Below are positions 3,001 through 20,000 of a DNA stretch of 20,000 nt, piece by piece. The DNA lies in IMG/VR virus record IMGVR_UViG_3300009008_000008, positions 108,048 to 128,047 of that record; one strand, given 5' to 3'. A program made the translations under genes and the position numbers. The stretch comes from an uncultured virus (IMG/VR IMGVR_UViG_3300009008_000008) (lineage: Duplodnaviria > Heunggongvirae > Uroviricota > Caudoviricetes). Under the pieces are notes generated by a model. The model did not search any database. It worked only from the letters and a program-made list of their open reading frames with translations, and had not been told where the DNA came from. Positions within the stretch are counted from its first letter, which is position 1; each line of letters starts with the position of its first letter.

Positions 3001-4402
3001 TCCATCGGGGCCTGTTCCGCCTTCCCCTGCTACTATGGCGGCAGCAGTAGGTCCTGCAAAACCAAAAGAAGGAGGTCTTTGGGGTGCCTTGAAGTCTGGT
3101 GCCTCTGCGGTGGCATCTGGGATCGGTTCGCTGTTCTTCGGAACAGCGGAAGCGGCGTCGGCTCCCACGACCAAGGGGTCTGCCCCTGCCCCTGGAAGTG
3201 CTGGTTCACCCACCAGCCAAGCACTTCCCGTGGTTGAGCCCGCCGCTATAACTACACCCGCACCTACTGCGTCTTCTACAGTCGTTCCTTCTGGTACTCC
3301 TATCCAACCTCCCGCGAGATCCACAAAACCGAAAGGTCAAGTTACAGGTGGGATGGCCGGTGTAAAGGCCATGATTAAACAGCACGAGGGCCTACGTCTT
3401 AACGTGTACAACGATAGTGTTGGTCTACCAACAATTGGGTACGGCCACCTCTTGCGCCCACACGAGAAACATCTAAGGTCCATCTCAATGCCCCAAGCGG
3501 ATGCCATGTTCGAGACGGACTTTACCCATCATAAAAAAGCCGCAGAACGGATTCCTGCTTTCCCCCAGATGAGTGAAGCTGGTCAGGGCGGACTTATTGA
3601 CCTAACATTCAACATGGGGCCTGCTTGGTACAAGAAGTGGCCTAACATGATGAGCCAACTCAAGAACGAAGATTACGAGGGCGCAGCCAATAATCTACTG
3701 GACTCAAAGTACGCTCGACAGGTACATGGACGTGCCAACACTGTGGCATCCTTGATACGGGCAGGGGGTGACGGATCCCCATCGGCAGATTCAGGTCCTC
3801 CTCCCGAGACATCAGCTGCTATTGGTGAATCGGTATCTGCAGCTGTGCCCACAGGGGGTCCTCCAGCGGGATCTGGTGGCGGAGGGGCGCCAACATCGCC
3901 TCAGGTCCCTGAAGTGCCTGGAGCGGCCTCTCCAAGGGCAGGAGGTGGTGCTATCCCGACAGGCGGAGCCATCATAAACGGTTCGACAGTTCCTGCAGGG
4001 CTTGGCCTTCCTTCTGTCCGCAGTGGTACCCAAGGTGAATCTCCTGGCTCTCGGGCAGGGTTCCCTTCCGTTCGTCGTGGTCGTAGGGGAGGTAAAGCGG
4101 CTCCCGCCCGTGGAAGAATTCGTGAACGCCAACGACCTTCCGTAGTATCGGGTGTGACCCAACCAGCACCGAATCCGTCTGCTGTGTTGGCAGAAGCAAC
4201 ATCCGCCAATAATTTACTTATGAGTGAACCCCGGGCCAAAAAAGAGGCCCGTGTTGCTTCGGGTGGTCCACCTCGTGGTGGAGGTGGTGCGGCTCCTGCT
4301 CCAACTGATGCTCGCGGTGGCAAAGGTGGGGGTGGTTCACCAGAAAAGAAAACATCCATCGACGACCCCTTGTTGATGCTGGCTTCTATGGAGTTATTTT
4401 AA
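2..4402 (+). CDS. Tape-measure-like tail protein with C-terminal-region T4-type lysozyme domain (5'-partial)
   Basis: Frame is open from base 2 (AGT TCC TTG...), so the TTG at 8 is probably not the true start. Ala/Gly/Ser-rich 11-residue periodicity (GLAAKGKASLA/GLASSGRGSLG/RLASKGVASLS/GLASKGLDLLG), amphipathic repeats, lysozyme domain, and position directly upstream of baseplate genes. Confidence 0.8.
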   Translation, partial: SSLTAGVTNRVGMAMTAMKDKLARGVGSMVGHVQNGLGSLANSPMVTSAFDSIKNLGNKGMLKFGEMVGHVQGFASKGMTALGGLTSRVTSSIGSLVSSGTASLSGMAGQARTTFGSLTSSVTSTLGGLAAKGKASLAGLASSGRGSLGRLASKGVASLSGLASKGLDLLGSLKDKMGEPALPGGGGPLRKIGKMFGPVGKLLSKAAPLLSKAAPIAMAGMALVDGVSAISRSADIFGKAEGEKTSLGEDISAGLGGALSGFTMGFIGEDTLAKGIHGVGSAVSDAVSGIGNVLTFGLFSDDDGGKEDKKKKEKEVPKVEPKYVEPPSLLNRMSFGLFGDDGTTEEEAKAAKRKAIIPAQVDGVAPEEQKALVDTHMQSYISDAEVPAGVAGDQFKTNQLVYAERSNWVSEAESADLQPNLMAKRNFRAQMTSKVHGQWAPEQQTQESEVAQAEAKAVATVPAGAEEAPSILDKVLDVASMVSPIGIIGKGISGLFGKEDPAVVDQAVLGAEAQEQSLLSKVGSAVASLTPFGLISKGLGAIFGDDSAPDPVAAEAVAQRSASEASASASSLLDKTWDVVKSVSPIGFISSALGGLFGDDTTPVDSAVAGAQAKEASLLSKVGDAVSSINPFGLISKGLGAIFGDDSAPTPDETKAAVQSAADRAMSAGQSLLTATKNIVDSVPILSTISSGISSLFGGDASVASPVGVAPGATVPPQTIEQHMDQWVASAAVPNSVVQASENTHYSFVEAQRVQWVQEVTSAISAPSGEDLQMFRLKFLKRLRDLKTDWMKGRESEARSLAAEVSAPVESGFLAGLGNLWDSVASTAQNVIQVVAPKVQAAIPAITAATQKGLESVAPGVSQKIQSFTGIDQSTIKGTGGTPPVPSGAITSPSYAMPPTTMGGPGAASGGQSIPTGSAGSVRAPQEATRAVQEQKIGDATPKGPTAQGSTRPVVASAPRITAPTPPSTTTRVGPAPAKGGGGSPAPPKPPKPATPTIKLPSGPVPPSPATMAAAVGPAKPKEGGLWGALKSGASAVASGIGSLFFGTAEAASAPTTKGSAPAPGSAGSPTSQALPVVEPAAITTPAPTASSTVVPSGTPIQPPARSTKPKGQVTGGMAGVKAMIKQHEGLRLNVYNDSVGLPTIGYGHLLRPHEKHLRSISMPQADAMFETDFTHHKKAAERIPAFPQMSEAGQGGLIDLTFNMGPAWYKKWPNMMSQLKNEDYEGAANNLLDSKYARQVHGRANTVASLIRAGGDGSPSADSGPPPETSAAIGESVSAAVPTGGPPAGSGGGGAPTSPQVPEVPGAASPRAGGGAIPTGGAIINGSTVPAGLGLPSVRSGTQGESPGSRAGFPSVRRGRRGGKAAPARGRIRERQRPSVVSGVTQPAPNPSAVLAEATSANNLLMSEPRAKKEARVASGGPPRGGGGAAPAPTDARGGKGGGGSPEKKTSIDDPLLMLASMELF
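604..642 (+). repeat. 21-nt-period tandem duplication (LLSKAAP x2)
   Basis: gcttttaagtaaagcggc at 604-621 and 625-642, identical and in frame. Confidence 0.85.
1409..2105 (+). repeat. Five ~46-54 aa intragenic repeats (S-[IL]-L-x-K...P[IF]G.I...[IL]..[LI]FG.D) in an ABAB pattern
   Basis: Units start at 1409, 1550, 1712, 1850 and 2012 (spacing 141/162/138/162 nt). 1607-1647 and 1907-1947 are 40/41 identical, exactly 300 nt apart. Confidence 0.9.
3350..3770 (+). other. GH24 / T4-lysozyme-like muramidase domain within the tape-measure-like protein
   Basis: HEGLRLNVYNDSVGLPTIGYGHLL matches the T4 lysozyme N-terminus ([24 protein letters not shown]) with E-x8-D-x5-T catalytic spacing (Glu codon 3386). 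Also has LIDLTFNMG and AANNLLDSKYARQVHGRA. Confidence 0.92.
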
Positions 4403-7657: not shown

Positions 7658-9058
7658 ATGTTACGCGGAGCCGATAACTGGGTTAACGCCCATGATTACT
7701 TAAAGAACCAGATTTTGATTTATAATTACCTGGATGAGGAGCAACGTCATAAGGTCATGATGAAGTTTTGGATCCTGGATGGTGTTATTTTAATAGAGGA
7801 TGGAGGCGAAGGTATAGACACGGATGTAATGTCTCCTATGAACCATGTGAAGAGCCTCCTGAATGAGTTAAAGTTCCTTGATCGGTACATTCGCACCAAG
7901 GATGGTCTCTTGCTTTTTGGTGAGGAACCGTTTGATCTGATGGTGTCCAAGCGTGAAGCAAACATGGCGAAATGGGTTACAGACCCTTACCTGCCTTCTT
8001 GTCAGATTGTGGTAGGGGACGACGGGCTCCCACGGGTTGTTGAAGGTTCTTGTCGGAATAAATACGACTACGAGATGCCCTTTAATAGCCGACCAACTTT
8101 ATTAACCTCTGAGCAGTTCGAAGAGTTATACCAATTGTTCAAGGTAAAGCAAGAGGCTGGTGAATTGTCTACTGCTTTTGATATCATGGTCAGCCTAACC
8201 GATTACAATTTGGACCAGGAGGCATTCTCCACAGAGACCGCCATTAATGGTTATGGGGTTAAAGAAGGAACCTTTGAAGAGTCGGCAGTCGCTGGTCAAA
8301 AGAAAGCCATGGGGATCGACTATAACGTGGTTCGCGAGATGCAAAGGATTCATGAGGAACTATGGCCCTACATACAAAATTTGAATCCGCCATCACCTAC
8401 GCCCCCACCCGCTGAGCTTATTGACACCGACGCCGAGCCAGACCCTGAAACTGGTGAACTACCAATGAAGCCTAACCCGCTCTCTTGGCCCTCCAGTGTC
8501 GTGGCTATCGCAGGGTTTCCACAGAATAGGGTACAAATCGAAGCTCTGGGAGGTGAAGGCCCTTCGCACAAAGGTATCATACCTGTTGGGGGTGGTTACC
8601 TTTTCCGCTTCCTAAACGTTGACGGTACTGTGAATACCACTATTCCCGACCCATCAGCGGAACCCCCAATTGATTATCTGGATGCTGGTATCCAATACGG
8701 GGATGTTGAGTGGGACGTCTCCAATTTTTCTTGGGTGCACTATTATATCGAAACAGACGATGATGAAGGTACAGAGGAATCCCACCTACATAAGTTAAGC
8801 AGTGGAGACTTTACAGGGTTCCCTCATGGGGCAGATACTCCTGGGGCAGGCACCCAAGAAAGGTTCCTCTCACTCGCCGAGCGTTGGGCTAATTTGAATG
8901 ATATACGAGAGAACCGTATACAACAGACAGGCACGCGTGTAACGGTGGAAAGTCAGTGGAAGATACTGTCTGACCATATACGCTATTTGGAGACCATTAA
9001 GGACCAGAAACAACAGTATGGTGACACCTTGAAGGAGATTTGTCCGGAGTTTACCTAA
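7658..9058 (+). CDS. Hypothetical protein, probably virion-associated
   Basis: 466-aa ORF filling the gap between PAAR and gp25, coupled at both ends. Acidic, with a Pro-rich linker (NPPSPTPPP) and a helical C-terminus; no recognised family. Confidence 0.7.
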   Translation: MLRGADNWVNAHDYLKNQILIYNYLDEEQRHKVMMKFWILDGVILIEDGGEGIDTDVMSPMNHVKSLLNELKFLDRYIRTKDGLLLFGEEPFDLMVSKREANMAKWVTDPYLPSCQIVVGDDGLPRVVEGSCRNKYDYEMPFNSRPTLLTSEQFEELYQLFKVKQEAGELSTAFDIMVSLTDYNLDQEAFSTETAINGYGVKEGTFEESAVAGQKKAMGIDYNVVREMQRIHEELWPYIQNLNPPSPTPPPAELIDTDAEPDPETGELPMKPNPLSWPSSVVAIAGFPQNRVQIEALGGEGPSHKGIIPVGGGYLFRFLNVDGTVNTTIPDPSAEPPIDYLDAGIQYGDVEWDVSNFSWVHYYIETDDDEGTEESHLHKLSSGDFTGFPHGADTPGAGTQERFLSLAERWANLNDIRENRIQQTGTRVTVESQWKILSDHIRYLETIKDQKQQYGDTLKEICPEFT

Positions 9059-9453
9059 TGACCATATATTCTGACATGAACCAATATAAGTTTGGGCCGC
9101 AGATTAAGCCCATGCTTCATGACGTGGAGCCGGTTTACCAGTCTATTAATAATATTCTGGCGACTGATCCTGGCGAACGTCTCATGAATCCTGAGTTTGG
9201 ATCGCGTTTGCGCGACTTGTTAATGCAACCGATTGATGCCATTACTACGAGTGAAATCTATGCCGCTGTGGTTCAGGCAATCAAGCGTTGGGAGCCGAGG
9301 GTAATTTTAATTCATGCGAAGTCGAAGGTGGTGGCGTTCCCTGATGAAAATCGGTACGAGGTCCAACTCTATTTCAAAATCCGAGGCATTGAAGGCCAGG
9401 TGTTCGATTACATTGGGTCCGCAGTGAAGCTTGGGAAAACGGCGGTGTTTTAA
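9058..9453 (+). CDS. Baseplate wedge / sheath initiator, GPW/gp25 family
   Basis: VYQSINNILATDPGERLMNPEFGSRLRDLLMQP...AIKRWEPRV is the canonical gp25 motif. Preferred start is ATG 9058 (TAATG overlap, GGAG at 9046-9049) rather than TTG 9040. Confidence 0.93.
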   Translation: MTIYSDMNQYKFGPQIKPMLHDVEPVYQSINNILATDPGERLMNPEFGSRLRDLLMQPIDAITTSEIYAAVVQAIKRWEPRVILIHAKSKVVAFPDENRYEVQLYFKIRGIEGQVFDYIGSAVKLGKTAVF

Positions 9454-11328
9454 ATGGCTATCAAGATAATCGATCCCAAACAGGCGTCCTATGCGAAGGT
9501 CTTCGAAGACCTCCAGAAGAATGTTGAGGCGCGTGTTGACTTCAATAGCTGGAAAGATTTCTACGAAAGCGGTAGTGGTGTTACCGTCACCCAGTTGTTG
9601 GCAGGTCTCGGTTCCTTTTTGTCCTACAACTCTCTGGCTTCACGCCGTGAGAGCGGTCTTTACACAGCCAAACTCCGCAGCTCTCTTTACAGCCTTTGCG
9701 ATACTCTAGGTTATCCCCCAAACCGAAAACTCTCCGCTCAACTCCGCCTACAGATGACTATCAACCAACCTCAGTTCTGGGACCGTACGATCCCTCTCGG
9801 GGTTCTAGGTGGTGTTTCTTTGTCCTTGATCGATAGTCATCATTTTACAGGTGGTGACCACCTCATTAACGTGGTATGTGGAGAGTGGGAAACCTTTACT
9901 TATACATCTGACACCAACAGGGCGTTCGCTGAGATCCAGTTTCCTGACCTGGATATTGACGCGATTGATAACCGGTTTATCGAGCTCTACATCAACGGCG
10001 AAAAGATCGAGCTTACCCTGTACCCGGAAGAGATGACGGAACAGAACGTCCTACTCAAAACAATGGCGGATAGGCTGTCCTTGGTCTTTGGGTTCCAAAA
10101 TCTGGGTCGCCAGCTTCTTAAGGGAGATAACATAGAGCTCAAGTATATCAGGGTCCACGGGGTTCCAACAACGGGCTATAACTTACCGAATGCCCAGCTG
10201 GATATCGAGGGTGTGGTTGCTCATGACATGCAGTTGATTGAGAACCTCGCTGCCCCTGACCCAATGATTAAGCTGACGCGGGTAGCCAGTGGTTACTTTG
10301 CCTCCAAACGTCGGATGGTTTCACGTGAGGATCACGAGTTCCTTATCATGAGCTATGAGGGCATCATATCTGCCAAGGTTAATCCCGGTTGGTGTCAGAT
10401 CGAGGATGGTGAAGGGAACATCACCAACTATTACGAGAAATATTTCTCACCCAAGGAATGCCGTGAAGCAGGAGGTAATTGGAAACGCCCTTTTGAGTGT
10501 TGTACCATCGAGATCGCTTATCTATACATTGATGAGCACATTATGCTGGATACCGAAGAGGACCACATCTTAACCTATTTGGATGAGTTCCGGATGCAAG
10601 GCGAAGAGATCATTTTTCGGGACCCAGAAGTTGTATTGGTAGACGCACAGGTCGTGATTGTGATGCAAGAGGGTACGGATACTGCAGGGTTTGATGATTA
10701 CATGCGGGATGCCCTTGAGAAGCAGATGTTTATCCTAGGGGGTAAGTTTTCGACGGCGGAGATTGTAGCGGCAGGTAATATGTTGGATGGTGTTATCAGA
10801 ACTTATTTGACCAAACCTATCGCGGACCGTCAACTCCCCTTCTGGAAGTACTTCAAGCTGCGTACGGTAGCTGTGACCTACACGACTGACCAAGCAGAAG
10901 TGCTTGAGTTTGGTTCCTCTCCTGATAGTGGTTACCAGCAGGATTGTGTTTACGGGGCTCTTTGCTTACACATTGCCAAAGGTGGTGAGGGTAACACTGG
11001 TGAGTTTGAGATCTGGGTTGACGGCCAGTTGTGGCGTACAGAGACGACCGACGTTCCTTACAACTCTACTGGTGAATGGGACTTCCTGTCACTCGAGGAA
11101 CTCTACCTCAGTTCCAACATCAACCACCAGGTTATGATTAAACCAGTCAATGCTAACAGCCATATCTTGGTGAACAAGATTGTGTATGATGCTCGTGGGT
11201 ATGAGGCTAAGACTGACGGCGCGGTAGGCGCCACCCAAGGCGCCGCCCATAGTGGGGCTGTTGAGTTTGATTCTTACGTCAAACTCAACCAGCATGGAAC
11301 CCTGACGTTTAACGTGATGCCAGAGTGA
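9454..11328 (+). CDS. Baseplate wedge protein, T4 gp6 / baseplate-J-like, with extra C-terminal domain
   Basis: WKDFYESGSG...LLAGLG...RESGLYTAKLRSSLYSLCDTLGYPP and RRMVSREDHE correspond to gp6 motifs (ESF.RTA.LRSSV...A...GY.P; RAVT..DY). Follows gp25. Confidence 0.88.
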   Translation: MAIKIIDPKQASYAKVFEDLQKNVEARVDFNSWKDFYESGSGVTVTQLLAGLGSFLSYNSLASRRESGLYTAKLRSSLYSLCDTLGYPPNRKLSAQLRLQMTINQPQFWDRTIPLGVLGGVSLSLIDSHHFTGGDHLINVVCGEWETFTYTSDTNRAFAEIQFPDLDIDAIDNRFIELYINGEKIELTLYPEEMTEQNVLLKTMADRLSLVFGFQNLGRQLLKGDNIELKYIRVHGVPTTGYNLPNAQLDIEGVVAHDMQLIENLAAPDPMIKLTRVASGYFASKRRMVSREDHEFLIMSYEGIISAKVNPGWCQIEDGEGNITNYYEKYFSPKECREAGGNWKRPFECCTIEIAYLYIDEHIMLDTEEDHILTYLDEFRMQGEEIIFRDPEVVLVDAQVVIVMQEGTDTAGFDDYMRDALEKQMFILGGKFSTAEIVAAGNMLDGVIRTYLTKPIADRQLPFWKYFKLRTVAVTYTTDQAEVLEFGSSPDSGYQQDCVYGALCLHIAKGGEGNTGEFEIWVDGQLWRTETTDVPYNSTGEWDFLSLEELYLSSNINHQVMIKPVNANSHILVNKIVYDARGYEAKTDGAVGATQGAAHSGAVEFDSYVKLNQHGTLTFNVMPE

Positions 11329-11332
11329 CCTG

Positions 11333-14300
11333 ATGGTAACCAAAACTCCGCACTCGATGCGGATTTTTAACAAGTCAATTGCCAACGTAGAGGACTATTT
11401 TCCATACGAACTCCGCGGCGAACCCCTGTACCAAAAGGTTGCAGAGCTCTCCCAATGGATTGTCGAGGAGTTCCATGATAAAGACATCCGCAAGGTCCGT
11501 AACTTTTGGAACGCGGGCCATGAGGATTTCGATGCCTCTGCTGTCCTCAAGATGCTTGGTGGGGAGATCTACGACAAACATCTCTTTAATGAGACATCAA
11601 AGACGACCCTCACACACCTCATAAGCCGCCTTTACAACCTCAAGGGTACCTATAAGGGCCTTCGCTTGTTGCTGGGCTTGTTGGACCTTGACGGGACTGT
11701 GTACGAATGGTGGAAAATCAACCGTGACATTGAACGTCAACAAGGTGAGTGGGAAACCTGGATCGCCGACCCGTCTATCGGTGAAGACGGGATGGAACCC
11801 TGCACGGTTATCATTGATCTTGGTGTTGGTGACTGGGTTCTCGATGAAACCCTAGACGAACGCCTCGCACTCCTGATCCAGACCTTTTTGTGGGTATGCG
11901 TCAAGGTTGACGAGATTCGTTGGCTCAAGCCCATCATTGATCAGGTAGAGTCTAGTACCTTATTCAATTCTGAAATGGAGATTTATACCGCCGACCGGTA
12001 TAACGCTCTCCGCTTTTATTGCCCTAACGTTCCCATTGTTGGGATTGGTTGGGACACTCCCACTAAAGTCTATGATTGTCCAATTGTAGGTGAGTTCACC
12101 GTTCTCTCCATCACAGACCCAAATCGTGTGTTGGTATTGGCCGCCGACCACTATTACGAAGAAGAGTTACCTTTGTGGTACGGTATCGACCCAGATTGGG
12201 TATGGTATGTCGGTGAAGGCGGATACCTCATTCCGGGAGAGCATCGTGAATTTACCCTGACAGTCGGTGAATTTGTTGTTGGGGAAGGATACGACGTTAC
12301 TGTAGGGTTGGACTGGAGCCTACAGGTCCAACCGGATATTTGGGTTCCCGAATCCCCGGGAATCCAATACGTAGGTGAATGCCCTGGCTTTCCTGGGTTT
12401 CCAGTCGCTGGTTCCATTATTGAACGGATTGAACAAACTCACGAGGTGGAAACACCCTACCAGATTATTAATGAGTTTGTTGTTAGCCCAGAGAGGGTCG
12501 TTTCCGACCAGTATGTAGTCTGGGCGCCGTTACCCCTACCTTGGTCTGAGGAGTGCTGGCAATACGTAGGCACTTTTGATGTAGGTCCTGATGAGACGGT
12601 AGGTGTTAACTGGAGGCAGTATGAGTACTTCCCCTCAGGGATTCAGATTACCCACCAAGAGATTGGTCTGGCTGAGGATCATTTCATCAACGCCAGTATC
12701 CTGTCAGAGTTGGATTTTCCGACTATCATGGCTGTGGCTGAGGATTCAATCCCAGAAGATCTTGCCTACCAAGTGGATTGGGCGCAGTTTACAGGAGGTG
12801 ACTTGATCGCAGAGCGTTTCCTTGAGGTGGGGGACGCCGTTGCTAATCCAGTGGTGGGTGGTTTTAACGTCGGAGACTTTACCGAGGACTTCACAATCCT
12901 TGAGCGGCACTACAGCCGACAAAATGAGGATGGTACTTACTACTATCTAAACTGGTTGGAGATGCCCCTTCAAGAGGTAGAACTCTCCAATCGGGTGATC
13001 GTCTCGACCGACAATCTGGTAGGTCACTTCACAGTAGGTGCCTACGAAGTTGGATCCACCTTGATCGTTGGAGATTTCAAAGTAGGTGATTGGTCACACC
13101 ATGTCCTCCCAGCAGACGCCAATATATATGCCGCAATGGCGGACCTACAATCGCATACCGAACTAGGATTTGACAATGTTTCGCCAGACTTGAGACAGGA
13201 CCTTTTTGGTGACATTGAAACGTCCGCTGAAGAACTAGAGTCCGCGTTCCTGACATCGGTTGTCGGGGACTTTATTATTGGGGATGGAACACACCTTGCA
13301 GGGTACGGTTCACACCTTAGCCACATTGAGACAGTAGAAGGTGCGTTCTACGGTCCCTACTCTCGGTCGACTCCGAGTTGGACAGAAGCCAGCGGTGAAC
13401 ACCACCTGTACCGGGCTGGCGGCCAGCATACCATCGGATCCTTTGTTGTTGGTGGGGGGTACCAAGAACTTCTGCCGTGGTTCCAAGCTGATACTGAAAT
13501 TGATTGGGCGACCGTTATTCCGGTTGATGACCCCTACGAGGTGTTACTAGAAGAGCGGGCAGTTGATCATTGGTTGGACCTCGACAAGAATCGATTTGAC
13601 TTCTCTTATTTGGAGGACCTAGATCCTGTTCTAGTACGCGTAGGTGATCCGCTTGTCGGCGCTTTCGATGTCGGTCAAGTACTAGCTCGTCGTACTTCTG
13701 ACAAACATTGGTTTCACCACCATCATGACGTGGTTGAAGTTGGAGCCTTTCACGTAGGTGAGATTGATGTGGGACAGGTCCACGAACACAGGGACCTTGA
13801 GGGGCCGTGGCCTGTAGTCGGCGTCTCCCACCTCAGGCAACCGGAACAAGAGGTGGGCTTTGTTGGTCACTACTCTGCTAACCCAGAGGCCACTGTAGGC
13901 GCTTTCATTGTAGGGGCTCATGCGGTAGGAAGCCTTACGGTCGGGGACTTCATCGTTGGTAACTCTAACTACCACGTGTTGCCAGATTCCGTCCACTATG
14001 TTACCTCCAACCTGACTCTCTCCCAAGAGGTAGAATCTTTTGCCGGGACCATAGATTCAGATGATAGTTGGGGCCAACAACAGGTTGAAACAGAGATCTG
14101 GACAAACCTTCAACTAATCGTCGGGCAGTTTGTTGTTGGTGCCGAGGTTGTTCGTGGTTGGGGTTCTTCTCTGCATACGCTGGAAGATGAAGTCCTTGCT
14201 TCTGCTTATGATGTGTCCCAGCCCTACGTCGAAGCAGAAGCCCAGTCAGTTCCCAACCTGGTAGGTACCATCGTTATTGGGCAGTTCGTTGTCGGTCCTT

Positions 14301-17300
14301 CGATTAACCTTGAGTGGTTTGGCCACGATGAAGTAGACTCAATTACCACGAACGTGCCCAGTGATGACCTCCTGGGGTTTGCTCCTACCCTCGAGGACCT
14401 TGCAAGTGACCTTAGGGCTCAAGACCCCCTAAGGTTTGTCCTAGGTGCCCTCGAGGGATTGGTAAGCAGCGCCCCTGTTCAGGTGAATGACTTTGAGGTC
14501 GGTGGCTTTACAGTAGGCGAACAGTACCAAGGTACTACAGACGGGCATTTTTACAAGGAAGCCCTGGAATTTCCCTTGGTAGGGTCCTTTGATGTAGGGG
14601 CCACTGTTATCGAACCCTTCGTTCAAACTCGGTTGTATGGCCCACTATTAGTTGGGGAATTTGACGTTGGGTCCACTGAGATCGGCTCTGACGTTGAGGC
14701 CTCCCGTCTTTACGGTCCGACGGTTAATCCTGTCGCTATTGGTCATTTCCGTGTACCAGAACAGGAAGCTTATTTCGAGCAAAGGTTTAACCTGAGTCCT
14801 TCTTTGCTGGTCGGGGAGTTTACCGTAACGTCCCATGAGGTAGGGGGCTTAACAGTAGGGTCCTTCATTGTTGGAGGTGCCGACCATCATGTGATCGAAC
14901 ACCAGGACTTCATCTTTGACCTCACGGGTGTTGGTCTCCAAGAAGCCCTAACATCGACTGTTGAACTGGGAACCGACCAATTAGAGGTCGGAGACAGCCA
15001 GACTTCGATTGATACCCCTTACTCTGAAATCGTCGGAAAATTTGTCGTTGGCGCCGCCACTGTTAGCGGGATGGCGGACACTCTTGATAGTTCAACAACA
15101 GGTTCCTACTTTGAGAGTGCCTATGTTCCAACGTTTGACAACCAAGTGGATCCACATGAGTTCGTTCCTAATTATGTGGGGGCCTTCCTCGTCGGTGAGT
15201 TTACGGTAGGCTTCAAGACAGATTGGACCCGGTTATCAGAAGAAGTTGGGGTCGAAACGTCGGTATCTGCCACAGATGAATTGGATACCTTGTCGGCTGT
15301 TGAGACTTGGACGGATCCCTATAACTTGGACCCGATGCGTTTCGACTGGAGTGTTCTCGAAGACCCCGAAGTCGAACACCATCCTACTCTTGTTGGACAA
15401 TTTATAATAGGTGCCCATACCCTAGGAAATCTGCAAGAGCGTCACACCGCTACTGACGGGCATTGGGTAGGGGACGTTGCTCGCTTGGTCGAAGTTGGTG
15501 AGTTGCTTGTAGGAGCTTTTGACGTAGGACAATCTTTGGTTGTCCCTACTTTACATCCCGTTGGTTCTGACCCATTAGGTATCAGCCACTTACGGGCCCC
15601 TCACCAAGAACACTCGATGGTCGAAGAATTCCAGTTGAATGCTGGGGTTATCGTCGGTCGGTTTAACGTTGACTTGGTGGCTGTAGACGAATCGTTGGTT
15701 GTTGGGGCTTTCAACGTTAGTGGGGCAGAGGCTAACGTACTACCACACAAGAACTACATCACAGACCAAATAGGCGTCCAGGAAGTATCTAACATAGAAC
15801 AACCAGTTGGGGTTGGCCAAGAATTCGACCATCAATTGACGGTTGCTTATGAAGACAGCCAAATGGCGTTTGTCGGGTCCTTCCTTGTGGGAGAGGCCAA
15901 TATATTTGGTCACACATCGGTTCAAGAAGCGGTTATCGAGGAAGGGTTCAGCGACACTGTTACACCTCATGTCGTAGTGGTTGGTCCTCGATTAGTCGGT
16001 ACCTTTAACGTTGGTGCGGACTCGGACTGGGTGGGTGCTGACGTTCATGTGGTCTATGAAGAACCTATGACCTCAGATGATACGTTTAATGCCCTCCAGA
16101 GGTCCTACCTCGCGAGTTCCCTGGATGGACTACCCTTAGATCGTTTTGACTTCTCGGGCCTGCCTAACACCTCTCAGGCCCCTTTGCAGGTGAACGGATT
16201 TATTGTTGATGATGGAACGGTGGTTGGCCAGCAGTTAGCTCAAGCGTCAGACGGTCATTATACAAGGACCGAATTCCTGTCCGAGGGTATCCCACATCTT
16301 GAATCCACCGTTTATCCACTGCTGGTTGGCGATTTCACGGTTGGGGTAGCAGATGCCATAGGCGACCAGATTGCGGTTGATGAAGAGGTAGATAGTTATC
16401 AGTTCGAGAAAGTGCTAGAAGGGCCCGCTGGAGGTCTTCCAGGCGTGTCCCATCTGACGTTCGGGGACCAAGACGTTGCCTATCAAGAAACTTGTGATGT
16501 TAATCCACGTGCCACCGTTGGGTCTTTTGTGGTCGGCTCTAACTTGGTCGGTTCTTTGGTCGTTAATGAATTCCTGGTGGGTGCTGCCGACTACTATGTA
16601 ATGAGCGATGAGGATTGGACCGCCTCTGATCAGATCACTCACCTGGAACAAGGCGAAGCCTTCGATGACACCGCTCCTCCGATGGATTCTGCTTTTACCA
16701 CAGGAACGCAAGGTACCTCGGTTACAACTCCGGTGACCCAGACCGTAGGATCTTTCATCGTTGGACAGGACATCGTTCGAGGACATACCTGCCAGTTAGA
16801 CATTCACCAGGAATTGGGGGACGCGATCTTCCACGATGAATATAACACTTCAATATTGGTCGGAGACTATCCTGTCGGGGCTTTTGTTGTCGGGCACCAA
16901 AATACCGATTTTCTCTCTGACATAAGGCAAGCGGTTGGCTTTGACCAACAGGTGGCTTCTGATGACAACCACCATGTGATGGCCGAAACGTCTTTGGAAT
17001 CTACCCATGTAGGACTCCAGGAACTACCCCTACAGCTTTTGTCGGACCTACATACCATCGAGATCCCACAAATGGTTGGGCAGTTTGTTGTAGGTTCAGA
17101 ATCTATGGTGGGTGCCCAGCAAGTAACAGGAACATCTGACGGTCACCACATGGTGCCACGGCTGGAGGTTCTTGAAGTCGGGGCTTTTACAGTCGGTTTT
17201 GTGTTGGTAGGATCCTATGAAGTACACGAAGAGTTGGTGCGTCCCTCAGATATAGGGGCCTCTCACTTGTCTAGCCCTTACCAGGATGTTGAACTCTCAG

Positions 17301-18652
17301 ACACGGTCAAGGTTAACTGTCCATTGGTTGTGGGTAACTTTAATATCTTCAGCCTGCCTGTAAGTGAAGACCTGATAGTAGACCGGTTCTTTGTAGGTGC
17401 TGCCACACATTACATCCAAGAGGACAAACCCTATGTCACTGACTGGTCCCAAGCCCTGGTAGAAGATTTTGACGTGGCAGGAAACCCTATAGGTGCCGAG
17501 GTAGTGATCCTTGGGTATCGCGAGGCTACCATTGAAAACAACCTTTACGATAACTCAGGGGATGCTACGTCAGGGTTGGTTGAGAGCGTTTACATGGAAG
17601 GGCGTTTTGAATTTGACCTTCCCATGACTATCGAGGATCAAATCCTGGTAGATGATGATTACTTAGAGGAGATGTTGGTAGCCATCCAGGACCAGCAAAC
17701 CCTTTCGGATTCCTTGGACATTATCGAACTAGACGGTACTCGCACTACAACCTTGCCGGGTAACCAGATTCAGTCTGGGCATACCGATCAAGTGGTAACA
17801 GGCGCTTCCTTTGGTTTCGAGTCCACAGTGGCTATGGAGGAGGGACCCTACCCTGTTATAGGGACTTTCATTGTAGGGGATGGTACCGTAATATCAGGGG
17901 CTGAGAGTCGGCTGCAACTTGAGTATGAAGCCGACGATCTTATGTTCGCAGACCCATATGTTCTCGAAGTGTTGGTTGGTAACTGTGTTGTTGGAGCCTT
18001 TGAAGTCCAGCCCCATGACACCGACCACATTAATTTTGGAACGAATCAAGACTTGACCACTAACGTGAACCATGCCGACCAGGTAGGTGTACAAGAGTTG
18101 CTTGGGGTTCATAACGTGTTTGAGAAGCAAGTACAAACAGCGGACCTCCAAAGCATAGAACACCTGCTGGTAACCCAGAGGGTATACGAGGTTGGAGAGT
18201 TCGTAGTAGGTCTTGCTATTTCCGTAGGTCAAATGGTGCGAGTGGACCCGCGTACTTCAGATGGCCATTATGTTCAACCAACGTCTATGGTCCTTACCGT
18301 GGGCGAATTCATCGTAAACGAAAGGAGCGTAGGCGAAACTTGGACTGAAGACGTTTTGACGGGCCCACTTGATGTGTTGGGTGTGAGCCATGTAGTGGAA
18401 ACTGTTGATACAGGTCTGGTCTCTCTGTATGGTCAGACAGGCACTGTTGTTGGCGGTTTTATTGTGGATGTGACTGAGGTCGGATCTTCGTTGTTGGTTG
18501 ATGGGTTTGTTGTTGGGGCCTCCCCTACCTATGTGACAGCGGATCAGCCGGAAGGCTCCGATTTCGCAGGTGTAAAGATTGAGGAGTATGACGTGCAAGG
18601 TGCGCTCATATCAACTGAGTACAGAAATTTGAGTTTGGGCATCCCTGCCTAA
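11333..18652 (+). CDS. Giant baseplate wedge protein (gp7 / P2 gpI-like N-terminus) with long acidic repeat region
   Basis: LISRLYNLKGTYKGLRLLLGLL...VYEWW is the tail-protein-I/gp7-type motif and the gene follows gp6. The remaining ~2200 aa are rich in VGxFxVG repeats. Confidence 0.75.
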   Translation: MVTKTPHSMRIFNKSIANVEDYFPYELRGEPLYQKVAELSQWIVEEFHDKDIRKVRNFWNAGHEDFDASAVLKMLGGEIYDKHLFNETSKTTLTHLISRLYNLKGTYKGLRLLLGLLDLDGTVYEWWKINRDIERQQGEWETWIADPSIGEDGMEPCTVIIDLGVGDWVLDETLDERLALLIQTFLWVCVKVDEIRWLKPIIDQVESSTLFNSEMEIYTADRYNALRFYCPNVPIVGIGWDTPTKVYDCPIVGEFTVLSITDPNRVLVLAADHYYEEELPLWYGIDPDWVWYVGEGGYLIPGEHREFTLTVGEFVVGEGYDVTVGLDWSLQVQPDIWVPESPGIQYVGECPGFPGFPVAGSIIERIEQTHEVETPYQIINEFVVSPERVVSDQYVVWAPLPLPWSEECWQYVGTFDVGPDETVGVNWRQYEYFPSGIQITHQEIGLAEDHFINASILSELDFPTIMAVAEDSIPEDLAYQVDWAQFTGGDLIAERFLEVGDAVANPVVGGFNVGDFTEDFTILERHYSRQNEDGTYYYLNWLEMPLQEVELSNRVIVSTDNLVGHFTVGAYEVGSTLIVGDFKVGDWSHHVLPADANIYAAMADLQSHTELGFDNVSPDLRQDLFGDIETSAEELESAFLTSVVGDFIIGDGTHLAGYGSHLSHIETVEGAFYGPYSRSTPSWTEASGEHHLYRAGGQHTIGSFVVGGGYQELLPWFQADTEIDWATVIPVDDPYEVLLEERAVDHWLDLDKNRFDFSYLEDLDPVLVRVGDPLVGAFDVGQVLARRTSDKHWFHHHHDVVEVGAFHVGEIDVGQVHEHRDLEGPWPVVGVSHLRQPEQEVGFVGHYSANPEATVGAFIVGAHAVGSLTVGDFIVGNSNYHVLPDSVHYVTSNLTLSQEVESFAGTIDSDDSWGQQQVETEIWTNLQLIVGQFVVGAEVVRGWGSSLHTLEDEVLASAYDVSQPYVEAEAQSVPNLVGTIVIGQFVVGPSINLEWFGHDEVDSITTNVPSDDLLGFAPTLEDLASDLRAQDPLRFVLGALEGLVSSAPVQVNDFEVGGFTVGEQYQGTTDGHFYKEALEFPLVGSFDVGATVIEPFVQTRLYGPLLVGEFDVGSTEIGSDVEASRLYGPTVNPVAIGHFRVPEQEAYFEQRFNLSPSLLVGEFTVTSHEVGGLTVGSFIVGGADHHVIEHQDFIFDLTGVGLQEALTSTVELGTDQLEVGDSQTSIDTPYSEIVGKFVVGAATVSGMADTLDSSTTGSYFESAYVPTFDNQVDPHEFVPNYVGAFLVGEFTVGFKTDWTRLSEEVGVETSVSATDELDTLSAVETWTDPYNLDPMRFDWSVLEDPEVEHHPTLVGQFIIGAHTLGNLQERHTATDGHWVGDVARLVEVGELLVGAFDVGQSLVVPTLHPVGSDPLGISHLRAPHQEHSMVEEFQLNAGVIVGRFNVDLVAVDESLVVGAFNVSGAEANVLPHKNYITDQIGVQEVSNIEQPVGVGQEFDHQLTVAYEDSQMAFVGSFLVGEANIFGHTSVQEAVIEEGFSDTVTPHVVVVGPRLVGTFNVGADSDWVGADVHVVYEEPMTSDDTFNALQRSYLASSLDGLPLDRFDFSGLPNTSQAPLQVNGFIVDDGTVVGQQLAQASDGHYTRTEFLSEGIPHLESTVYPLLVGDFTVGVADAIGDQIAVDEEVDSYQFEKVLEGPAGGLPGVSHLTFGDQDVAYQETCDVNPRATVGSFVVGSNLVGSLVVNEFLVGAADYYVMSDEDWTASDQITHLEQGEAFDDTAPPMDSAFTTGTQGTSVTTPVTQTVGSFIVGQDIVRGHTCQLDIHQELGDAIFHDEYNTSILVGDYPVGAFVVGHQNTDFLSDIRQAVGFDQQVASDDNHHVMAETSLESTHVGLQELPLQLLSDLHTIEIPQMVGQFVVGSESMVGAQQVTGTSDGHHMVPRLEVLEVGAFTVGFVLVGSYEVHEELVRPSDIGASHLSSPYQDVELSDTVKVNCPLVVGNFNIFSLPVSEDLIVDRFFVGAATHYIQEDKPYVTDWSQALVEDFDVAGNPIGAEVVILGYREATIENNLYDNSGDATSGLVESVYMEGRFEFDLPMTIEDQILVDDDYLEEMLVAIQDQQTLSDSLDIIELDGTRTTTLPGNQIQSGHTDQVVTGASFGFESTVAMEEGPYPVIGTFIVGDGTVISGAESRLQLEYEADDLMFADPYVLEVLVGNCVVGAFEVQPHDTDHINFGTNQDLTTNVNHADQVGVQELLGVHNVFEKQVQTADLQSIEHLLVTQRVYEVGEFVVGLAISVGQMVRVDPRTSDGHYVQPTSMVLTVGEFIVNERSVGETWTEDVLTGPLDVLGVSHVVETVDTGLVSLYGQTGTVVGGFIVDVTEVGSSLLVDGFVVGASPTYVTADQPEGSDFAGVKIEEYDVQGALISTEYRNLSLGIPA
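12944..18649 (+). repeat. About six ~270-375 aa super-repeats plus a partial seventh
   Basis: Unit boundary motif (G[VIA]SH[LV]-like) at 13820, 14735, 15578, 16442, 17255 and 18380; [ST]D[GK]H at 13697, 14537, 15452, 16247, 17135 and 18257. Confidence 0.85.
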
Positions 18653-18654
18653 GT

Positions 18655-18670
18655 TAGGGATTTTTCCCTA
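18655..18670 (+). promoter_or_regulatory. Short hairpin just after the giant gene (taggga-tttt-tcccta)
   Basis: 6-bp perfect stem 3 nt after the stop codon. There is no immediate U-tract, so a terminator role is uncertain. Confidence 0.35.
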
Positions 18671-18717
18671 CGCTAATTTTACTCAACTGTGCTTTAGGGA
18701 TAACCTACGGACCAAAT

Positions 18718-19352
18718 GAGGATTTGGACATGAGATTGCGTGATAACATACGAACAGGAATGGAGATGGGAATGAACCAAGCGATTGTGTTGGACGACAC
18801 TATCCAGGTTCGCGGTGCCGTCCGTGCAATGTTCTGGGACTACGAGAGCCCTGACAGTGATCGGATCGTGGGCCAGGGTATCTGTCATGAAAAGACCAAC
18901 CTGATTGTGAACCTGGCCCGGAAGGCGCTGGCACACCTCGTTGCTGAGGGTGAAGGCGTGTACGTGGTCAACACGTTCAAATTGGGTACTCAAGGTCACA
19001 GCGGTACGGATATTTTGACCCCAGTGGATCCGACCGTGACTGACACCGGGCTGATTGATGGAGCACCTTTTTCCAAGGCCATCACAACCCTTGAATACTT
19101 GCCGGTAGGCAATGAAACATCAGTGAAGTTCACGATCCCCGTGGAAAAGGCAGAGGCGAACGGTGGTGGCGGTGGATCCGTCGCATATACCGAGGCCGGG
19201 TTGTTTTCGACAAACGGGAACCTCTTTGCGCGGGAGACCTTTCCTGCGATCGTGAAAAACGCCAATCGCAAGGTTACCTTTGAGTGGACCTTGCTGTTTT
19301 AACAAAGGAACCGTCCACTTTCAGGGTTATCGCTAGGTTTGTCCAAATCCTC
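18718..19352. repeat. 13-bp perfect inverted repeat bracketing the collar gene
   Basis: gaggatttggaca (18718-18730) is the reverse complement of tgtccaaatcctc (19340-19352). Confidence 0.85.
18730..19302 (+). CDS. Tail-collar / fibre-attachment protein (DUF3751-like stand-alone domain)
   Basis: NLIVNLARKALAHLV...FKLGT...TDTGL...EANG...YTEAGLFSTNGNLFARETFPAIVK...FEWTLLF resembles tail-collar/fibre N-terminal domains. SD GAGGA at 18718-18722 favours ATG 18730; ATG 18772 is an alternative. Confidence 0.7.
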   Translation: MRLRDNIRTGMEMGMNQAIVLDDTIQVRGAVRAMFWDYESPDSDRIVGQGICHEKTNLIVNLARKALAHLVAEGEGVYVVNTFKLGTQGHSGTDILTPVDPTVTDTGLIDGAPFSKAITTLEYLPVGNETSVKFTIPVEKAEANGGGGGSVAYTEAGLFSTNGNLFARETFPAIVKNANRKVTFEWTLLF

Positions 19353-19396
19353 GTTACTCCGGAGTAGACACCGCCAACTAATAGGAGATCCAACGA

Positions 19397-20000
19397 ATGT
19401 CTGTTTTTACAGTGAACCCTCAGTGGGTCATGAACGGGGAGCCAGCCTCTGGTTCACCTGACGGTGTAACCCCGTCTGGTAACCTCAACCGGGCTGTTAA
19501 CCTTGTCAATGAGAACACCAAATACCTCAAAGACCGCCTGGATGTGTCTGTCGAAGAGAACGGTGACCTGAAAGCCAGTAAGGTCCTCGAACACCTCGAC
19601 GAAACCACCGGCATTACCAACGCCAAGGTTGCGACCGGCGCCGCCATTGCCGAGGCCAAATTGGCTCTGTCTATCACAGGGCAGAACCGAGTTGGCGGCG
19701 GAACCTTCTCCGCACTCTCCGAGGTCGCCACCGATCTGCAAACCGTCTACGACCAGATCGGTCTGAGCGTGATGGGTCGGGAAGAGTTCGAGATGATCGC
19801 CGCCCAAGCCCGTGAGCAATACGCCGGCTCCGGTTTCATCGAATGGGGGAAACATCACTCGTCCGCCAGCCACCCCCCGATGGGGGAAGGTCTCTGGTCC
19901 TGGGGCTCCGGCACCCTCACCCAGCAACTCTACCTGGGACGTAGCGTATCATCCTTCGGCGGCGAGAGCCGAGCCGAGTTCCCAGTCCTCAACGTCAACG
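19397..20000 (+). CDS. Fibritin-like / tail-fibre protein (3'-partial; absent from the ORF track)
   Basis: SD TAGGAG at 19382-19387, ATG 19397, open to the window end: MSVFTVNPQWVMNGEPASGSPDGVTPSGNLNRAVNLVNENTKYLKDRL...MGREEFEMIAAQAREQYAGSGFIEWGKH. The N-terminus resembles T4 fibritin (WIKNGE...G.MNRP.V.V..N) and fibre N-termini. Confidence 0.78.
   Translation, partial: MSVFTVNPQWVMNGEPASGSPDGVTPSGNLNRAVNLVNENTKYLKDRLDVSVEENGDLKASKVLEHLDETTGITNAKVATGAAIAEAKLALSITGQNRVGGGTFSALSEVATDLQTVYDQIGLSVMGREEFEMIAAQAREQYAGSGFIEWGKHHSSASHPPMGEGLWSWGSGTLTQQLYLGRSVSSFGGESRAEFPVLNVN

Follow-up and report, generated by a model that had tools for sequence, protein, structure and literature searches.

In the single-stranded RNA phages MS2 (for its maturation gene) and Q-beta, a distant complementary sequence closes the ribosome binding site, and in MS2 ribosomes can translate the gene only from nascent RNA that has yet to fold. 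These phages have RNA genomes, and the partner sequence lies upstream or inside another cistron. The locus described here belongs, by contrast, to a double-stranded DNA phage, and the partner would be made about 620 nt after the SD sequence.

A closer relative in design is found in a bacterial mRNA. In the icaR mRNA of Staphylococcus aureus, a motif past the stop codon pairs with the message's own SD region; this pairing both keeps the initiation complex from forming and yields a substrate for RNase III (PMC3868564). The phage locus is like icaR in that the SD region of a gene has its complement beyond that gene's stop codon, here over 16 bp. It is unlike icaR in that the downstream arm lies in an intercistronic spacer of a late operon rather than in a terminal 3'-UTR, and in that the predicted helix, almost free of mismatches, extends over 16 bp (21–22 bp with its extensions) and also covers the A of AUG. 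In the hbs mRNA of Bacillus subtilis, a 5'/3'-UTR interaction has been tied to ribosome initiation and nuclease access (PMC5737220). There, too, the two ends of one mRNA pair; unlike the phage helix, the hbs pairing is described as a matter of stability rather than of SD occlusion (PMC5737220). Finally, in operon mRNAs each ORF has been described as its own structural unit, related to translation rate (PMC5318159). The ORF-centric structure is statistical and genome-wide, whereas the phage case is one discrete conserved helix bracketing one ORF (PMC5318159).

The DNA analysed (the window, 20,000 nt) is the terminal 20 kb of a 128-kb record of an uncultured marine virus (G000), and a 169-kb assembly of the same virus (G001) ends at the identical base. 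The window carries a contractile-tail baseplate module (Table 1), in which an ORF of 2439 aa has no Pfam match at E <= 0.01. This ORF is followed by a 190-aa gene, flanked by the sole two sizeable spacers of that part of the window, and by a fibre-like gene; at the orthologous position of the latter, phages Peetri and Illi-2 are annotated with a tail fiber protein. The two assemblies both stop inside the fibre-like gene, at window position 20000, and from 19648 on, variants cluster in contigs of other runs. The shared end base and these variants suggest that strain variation in the fibre gene breaks assembly.

Table 1. Positions of the features discussed in the text, in window coordinates.
Feature	Position	Strand	Remarks
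Phage_base_V and PAAR proteins	window		contractile-tail baseplate module
gp25-like wedge protein	9040-9453		
gp6-like wedge protein	9454-11328		
2439-aa ORF	11333-18652		stop 18650-18652; baseplate module
Three overlapping terminator-like hairpins	18632-18670	+	straddle the stop of the 2439-aa gene; e.g. stem ATCCCT/AGGGAT, then TTTTT
Conserved block TACGCTAATTTTA	18669-18681	+	13-nt identity with L010; holds CTAATTTTA
Element A, tagggataacc	18695-18705	+	11 nt, 91% complementary to A'
Outer 5' arm (CT, CGGA)	18705-18711	+	pairs with 19358-19364 in predicted duplex
Local hairpin CCAAAU-GAGG-AUUUGG	18712-18727	+	predicted in fold of 18688-18760; SD in loop
5' arm, B	18715-18730	+	holds SD GAGGA (18718-18722) and A of ATG
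190-aa gene	18730-19302	+	phrog_5417 (PHROG E = 2.2e-22), function unknown
Element A', ggttatcgcta	19325-19335	+	from inverted-repeat search
3' arm, B'	19338-19355	+	TTTGTCCAAATCC conserved; 19340-19355 pairs with 18715-18730
Outer 3' arm (TCCG, AG)	19358-19364	+	predicted duplex
Fibre-like gene	19397-20000	+	SD AGGAG 19383; cut off by record end

Two other repeats touch the window. A 28-nt inverted repeat (96% complementary, 531-558 / 3185-3212) lies within a 1466-aa ORF with a lysozyme domain and is far longer than the window's other inverted pairs. A 36-nt exact direct repeat has one copy in a GGGGG-rich loop region of the 190-aa gene (window 19147-19182) and the other about 118 kb away (G000:C1:8443-8478; L003:1501-1536), near the 3' end of a 253-aa ORF; contigs break at this repeat in the assemblies of 3 runs. 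Read by eye, the 253-aa ORF presumably encodes a purine-synthesis (PurC-like) enzyme.

The 190-aa gene likely starts at 18730, as the preliminary description had assumed. This start is preferred over 18766 because the N-termini of homologues align to the protein encoded from 18730, because in the closest relative, a metagenome contig (L010), the equivalent ATG is the first of its frame, only 18 nt of which are open upstream, and because codon-like divergence between the window and L010 sets in directly after the ATG at 18730. The gene-caller version in the database, P0001, begins 12 codons further on, at 18766, and is 178 aa long. The product has no Pfam match. Its AF2 model (pLDDT 79.3, pTM 0.73) has as its best Foldseek match gp105 of Listeria phage A511 (6hhk; E = 3.1e-4, TM 0.46-0.50), with further matches to a tail chain of Haloferax virus HFTV1 and to baseplate and arm chains of phi812. 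In Pseudomonas and Vibrio phages the gene order runs from baseplate wedge genes through the homologue of the 190-aa gene to the tail fibre gene. The gene had been called a collar gene; that name is not supported, since the predicted fold resembles baseplate arm proteins, and a baseplate arm or fibre-attachment protein is tentatively the better fit.

The complementarity brackets this gene. The segments gaggatttggaca (18718-18730) and tgtccaaatcctc (19340-19352) are exact reverse complements over 13 nt. An inverted-repeat search returns the full arms as 16 nt, 94% complementary and 609 nt apart; as RNA they would form 16 bp, including the 13-bp perfect run and one G-U. The match thus exists as first described, and it does cover the SD and the A of ATG.

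How much weight can such a match bear by itself? Inverted pairs are not rare: with a seed of 11 the window yields 28, and among the best 25, which were inspected, 8 (B/B' included) contain a perfect 13-mer. An inverted match of 13 nt could therefore arise by chance in a 20-kb window. In the 128-kb record, a perfect complement of at least 12 nt occurs in 10 of the 2701 spacer pairs; the B/B' spacers are the smallest of those ten (77 x 94 nt), and theirs is the best match among the 73 adjacent spacer pairs, the runner-up being 10 nt. The duplex between the initiation region (-25 to +5) and the downstream spacer has a predicted energy of -30.8 kcal/mol; no other of the 65 cognate pairs is as good and none of 500 dinucleotide shuffles equals it, and -30 kcal/mol or lower is reached by 17 of 8255 non-cognate pairs. 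This amounts to a chance of roughly 0.002 per gene, which does not convince by itself when the finding was selected out of a large scan, and the excess of B/B' over chance, taken alone, is only moderate.

These figures are what a sceptic would build upon. The arms may be unrelated, the 3' arm being conserved independently as a signal of the fibre cistron or as a nuclease or standby site, and its complementarity to the SD coincidental. Inverted matches of 13 nt are common (at least 8 in the window), 17 of the 8255 non-cognate pairs are as stable, the scan from which B/B' was picked was very large, and the anti-SD-like CCTC of the 3' arm helps the match. Because the 13-nt match alone can be chance, the main evidence has to come from conservation.

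Neither the 13-mer nor the 11-nt core with up to one mismatch has another copy in the 128-kb record; the 169-kb assembly adds one exact 11-mer, in a coding region. A general regulatory or protein-binding motif is disfavoured, as there are just two intergenic copies. Other genes of the record with strong duplexes between initiation region and spacer were looked at as parallels and set aside, their duplexes being patchy, loop-rich and not comparable.

A protein search (65 hits) returned one relative at 78% amino acid identity, P0002, encoded at L010. The runner-up (P0006) has 66% identity over only 74% of the query, and all others are at 62% or less. L010 was also the sole locus obtained from the metagenome-contig search. 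In the phage collection there was no DNA match, and the protein matches were all below 60% amino acid identity. The viral-contig search gave 7 loci, all at 51% identity or less except the window's own record, and the genome-contig search gave no relatives of the locus. The evidence from conservation hence comes from one informative comparator. It is a well diverged one: L010 is far more AT-rich than the window, and the two agree at just 71 of 188 third-codon positions (0.38).

The three longest identical runs in the roughly 900 nt aligned between the window and L010 are all non-coding. They are CAAATGAGGATTTGGACATGA (21 nt, 18713-18733) at the 5' arm, TTTGTCCAAATCC (13 nt, 19338-19350) at the 3' arm, and the 13-nt block with promoter-like features that lies upstream of both (Table 1); the longest coding runs are 11 nt. 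The remaining downstream spacer has diverged in L010 and includes a 21-nt gap. For a neutral sequence, hand arithmetic puts a 13-nt run at about 0.38^13 x 75 positions = 3e-4. Judged by this island of identity, set against a third-codon identity of 0.38 and a diverged spacer, the 3' arm is under constraint, and it is complementary to another constrained block. A functional partner of the 5' arm would be expected to look like this.

The L010 arms also pair, at a predicted -25.9 kcal/mol, and none of 500 shuffles is as good. The core of the 5' arm is identical in the two genomes, so the core offers no covariation. The core region of the 3' arm has two changes; one of them, T19351 of the window, is C in L010 and breaks a pair opposite the SD, uncompensated. 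If the arms were unrelated, two independently constrained blocks would have to be 11-nt complements by accident in each of the genomes, a chance that hand arithmetic puts near 4^-11 per position, and the complementarity would have to run by accident past the conserved core, through sequence that differs between the genomes. No sigma-70-like promoter was found on the + strand around the 3' arm, and Rfam 15 gave no match in 18400-19600 (0 at E <= 1); both results speak against coincidence.

The shared core is 11 nt; outside it the arms differ in sequence, yet still pair. For the window the optimal duplex comprises 22 bp (16+4+2), for L010 21 bp (11+7+3). Most positions of the outer 3' arm are different in the two genomes (TCGTTACTCCGGAG in the window vs. 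CTGTTTGTTCTAA in L010). CGGA of the window pairs with UCCG, and at the homologous 5' positions UAGA of L010 pairs with UCUA (in DNA, TAGA replaces CGGA and TCTA replaces TCCG). Two base pairs have changed on both sides here (C-G to U-A, G-C to A-U), apparently in compensation, with the proviso that the pairs require a register shift of 1 nt. When only the extensions were shuffled, the observed value was reached by 21 of 2000 shuffles for the window and by 125 of 2000 for L010, and the 5' arm of L010 gives -25.9 with the window's 3' extension vs. -24.4 with its own.

The preliminary description had argued that the G-U extensions favor an RNA-level role. They prove neutral: since the plus and minus strands pair equally well (-31.1 vs. 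-31.6 in the window; -25.2 vs. -24.9 in L010), the mRNA strand is not singled out.

Both predicted duplexes contain a double-stranded stretch of about two turns, the length looked for in an RNase III stem. The duplex could thus form for processing or stability, through RNase III cutting or RNA shielding, and so separate the arm-gene and fibre mRNAs. The stems flanking rRNAs and the intercistronic sites of T7 are comparable processing stems. The predicted helix length fits (21–22 bp in each genome, interrupted by an internal loop or a mismatch), as does the icaR duplex, an RNase III substrate (PMC3868564). A pure processing site would not need to lie exactly on the SD and AUG, as this helix does, and the 169-kb phage record yielded no RNase III gene. 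We hold processing as the sole purpose of the duplex to be quite unlikely.

Competing folds have to be considered as well. In the fold of the initiation region alone, the SD is placed in the loop of a local hairpin (Table 1), which would compete with the long-range helix; judged by sequence, L010 retains 5 of its 6 pairs. Predicted pairing probability is about 1.0 for B/B' in the window and averages 0.71-0.76 over the initiation region in the window and L010. It was dropped as evidence and carries little weight, because 5 of 43 genes of the record, the 190-aa gene included, reach a mean of at least 0.45 for pairing between initiation region and downstream spacer. A small ORF over the 3' arm (19339-19461) was likewise rejected; it is not conserved and has 14 codons in L010.

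A second complementary pair, A/A', had been put forward together with B/B', the order A-B...A'-B' implying a pseudoknot rather than nested helices. The order does cross, and the 10/11 match of A/A' is present in the window. It goes no further: only ATAACCTA of A is kept in L010, and A' is missing from it. Since A' falls in the 21-nt gap of L010, the A/A' helix is not conserved and a pseudoknot in which it crosses B/B' is unsupported. By hand arithmetic, A/A' alone has about a 6% chance of occurring between these spacers.

Beyond L010 the feature fades. Pairing of the B/B' type is absent from the distant loci L005, L008, L011 (Vibrio phage GR7B), L012 (Vibrio phage GR11A), L013 and L014 (both Pseudomonas phages) and L061; L013 and L014 are without an upstream spacer. 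Two further loci are marginal, 56 of 500 shuffles being as good for L004 and 17 of 500 for L006. Of the homologous loci, the one close relative keeps the pairing, the seven distant ones named first lack it and L004 and L006 are marginal. In L006 (51% identity), 1470-1488 and 2047-2062 are complementary (9+7 bp), as is also seen in L004: a tandem GTGAAAG/GTGAAAAAG just 5' of the start of the L006 gene pairs with CTTTTTCAT/CTTTCAT right after its stop. This may be an analogous fold-back of unrelated sequence, AT-rich and marginal as it is.

A scan of viral contigs for 15-mers gave 69 stretches, of which 64 are chance, 1 is the window's own record and 4 belong to one other phage. The last four share an exact 17 nt with the window, GAGGATTTGGACATGAG (18718-18734), located at L061:1199-1215 and also in L021, L034 and L081; these contigs are mutually identical across the 200 nt aligned. 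In that phage GAGGATTTGGACATGAG makes up the SD and start of a 222-aa homologue, 27% identical, and the search for a complementary downstream arm in it found none. Judged from its first codons, the gene downstream of this homologue looks like a tail sheath gene. A rough estimate puts the chance of the shared 17 nt at ~1e-3 or less. Because the other phage has GAGGATTTGGACATGAG without the 3' arm, the 5' arm can, by this comparison, exist alone, and the 3' arm could be a later addition. The absence of the feature from distant loci and the identical 5' arm standing alone both add to the case for coincidence. Weighed against the two constrained and mutually complementary blocks, we consider it unlikely that the arms are unrelated.

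The equal stability of the two strands leaves room for a role at the level of DNA, as does the perfect 13-bp inverted repeat that flanks a whole gene adjoining the tail fibre gene. The arms could be recombinase sites that flip 18731-19339 between ON and OFF, which the preliminary description had offered as its alternative, or opposed sites for one DNA-binding protein. There are precedents in the invertible fibre segments of phages Mu (Gin/G) and P1 (Cin/C) and in fimS, which has 9-bp repeats. The locus resembles these systems in having short inverted repeats flanking a segment in or near tail fibre genes. It differs from them in that no recombinase was found, no alternative coding state is present and contigs show one orientation. 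Neither PF00239 nor PF00589 was found in the 128-kb and 169-kb records, which are estimated to be 50% and 65% complete. The contigs of 4 DNA runs, which can hide rare forms, contain no strand-changing joint and no variants in either arm. Moreover, inversion would leave the SD followed by ACA without a start codon, merely silencing a conserved structural gene. The extended complementarity, with its loops, indels and genome-specific sequence, is unlike recombinase or operator sites, and another phage has this 5' arm with no partner to it. The invertible segment has found no support, and we regard a DNA-level function of the arms as very unlikely.

For the arms to pair as RNA they have to be in the same transcript. 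The terminator-like hairpins at the stop of the 2439-aa gene number 3 vs. 1.0 expected from shuffles; the local fold there has z = -2.83, and in L010 the hairpins are only weakly present. The conserved block next to them may be a phage promoter serving the 190-aa gene. The CTAATTTTA it holds occurs 6 times in the 128-kb record vs. 0.74 expected, the maximum in 100 simulations being 4. Besides window 18673-18681, the copies in G000 are at 13034+, 97687+, 29374-, 43428- and 70589-, and some of them precede a start codon by about 40-55 nt. Vibrio phages GR7B and GR11A carry a similar ACTAATT(T/A)TA some 45 nt ahead of their orthologues. No terminator-like site was found in the stretch from the 190-aa gene to the fibre gene (19303-19396). 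From the upstream terminator-like hairpins and promoter-like block, and with no terminator-like site between the cistrons, we infer one transcript from near 18690 that would cover both.

Putting these elements together, the arms may act as a cis-acting RNA duplex in one late transcript. Transcription would begin just after the CTAATTTTA block and proceed through the baseplate-arm gene into the fibre gene. While the arm gene is being transcribed the SD would be accessible, perhaps held out in the local hairpin's loop. About 620 nt later, 19340-19364 would emerge and pair with 18705-18730, and the resulting helix of about 22 bp (16+4+2) would bury the SD and the A of AUG. Further initiation on the arm cistron would be limited, the SD of the fibre cistron staying open. 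The helix, two turns long, could also be cleaved by host RNase III.

The reading we favor is a lineage-specific mRNA fold-back of the icaR type, found in the window and L010, that would occlude the SD and AUG and may also serve as an RNase III substrate; to this we assign an even chance. A more specific version is doubtful: a self-closing switch timed by transcription, which would allow ribosome loading only in the interval of about 620 nt, be sealed then by the ~22-bp helix (taken here as maintained by compensatory change), possibly be cut by RNase III, and give a low ratio of arm to fibre protein, perhaps with a crossing contact from the conserved AACCT/AGGTT pair beside the arms.

A narrow literature search found no comparable fold-back in a double-stranded DNA phage, and a published case may exist. 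The present case is a single locus with one comparator. If the favored reading is true, an icaR-like pairing of 5' and 3' sequences would operate inside a late, polycistronic message of a tailed dsDNA phage. It would then give the phage a simple, protein-free means of setting different outputs for adjoining structural genes. More generally, short conserved islands in the intercistronic spacers of phages could be matched to partners hundreds of nucleotides away.
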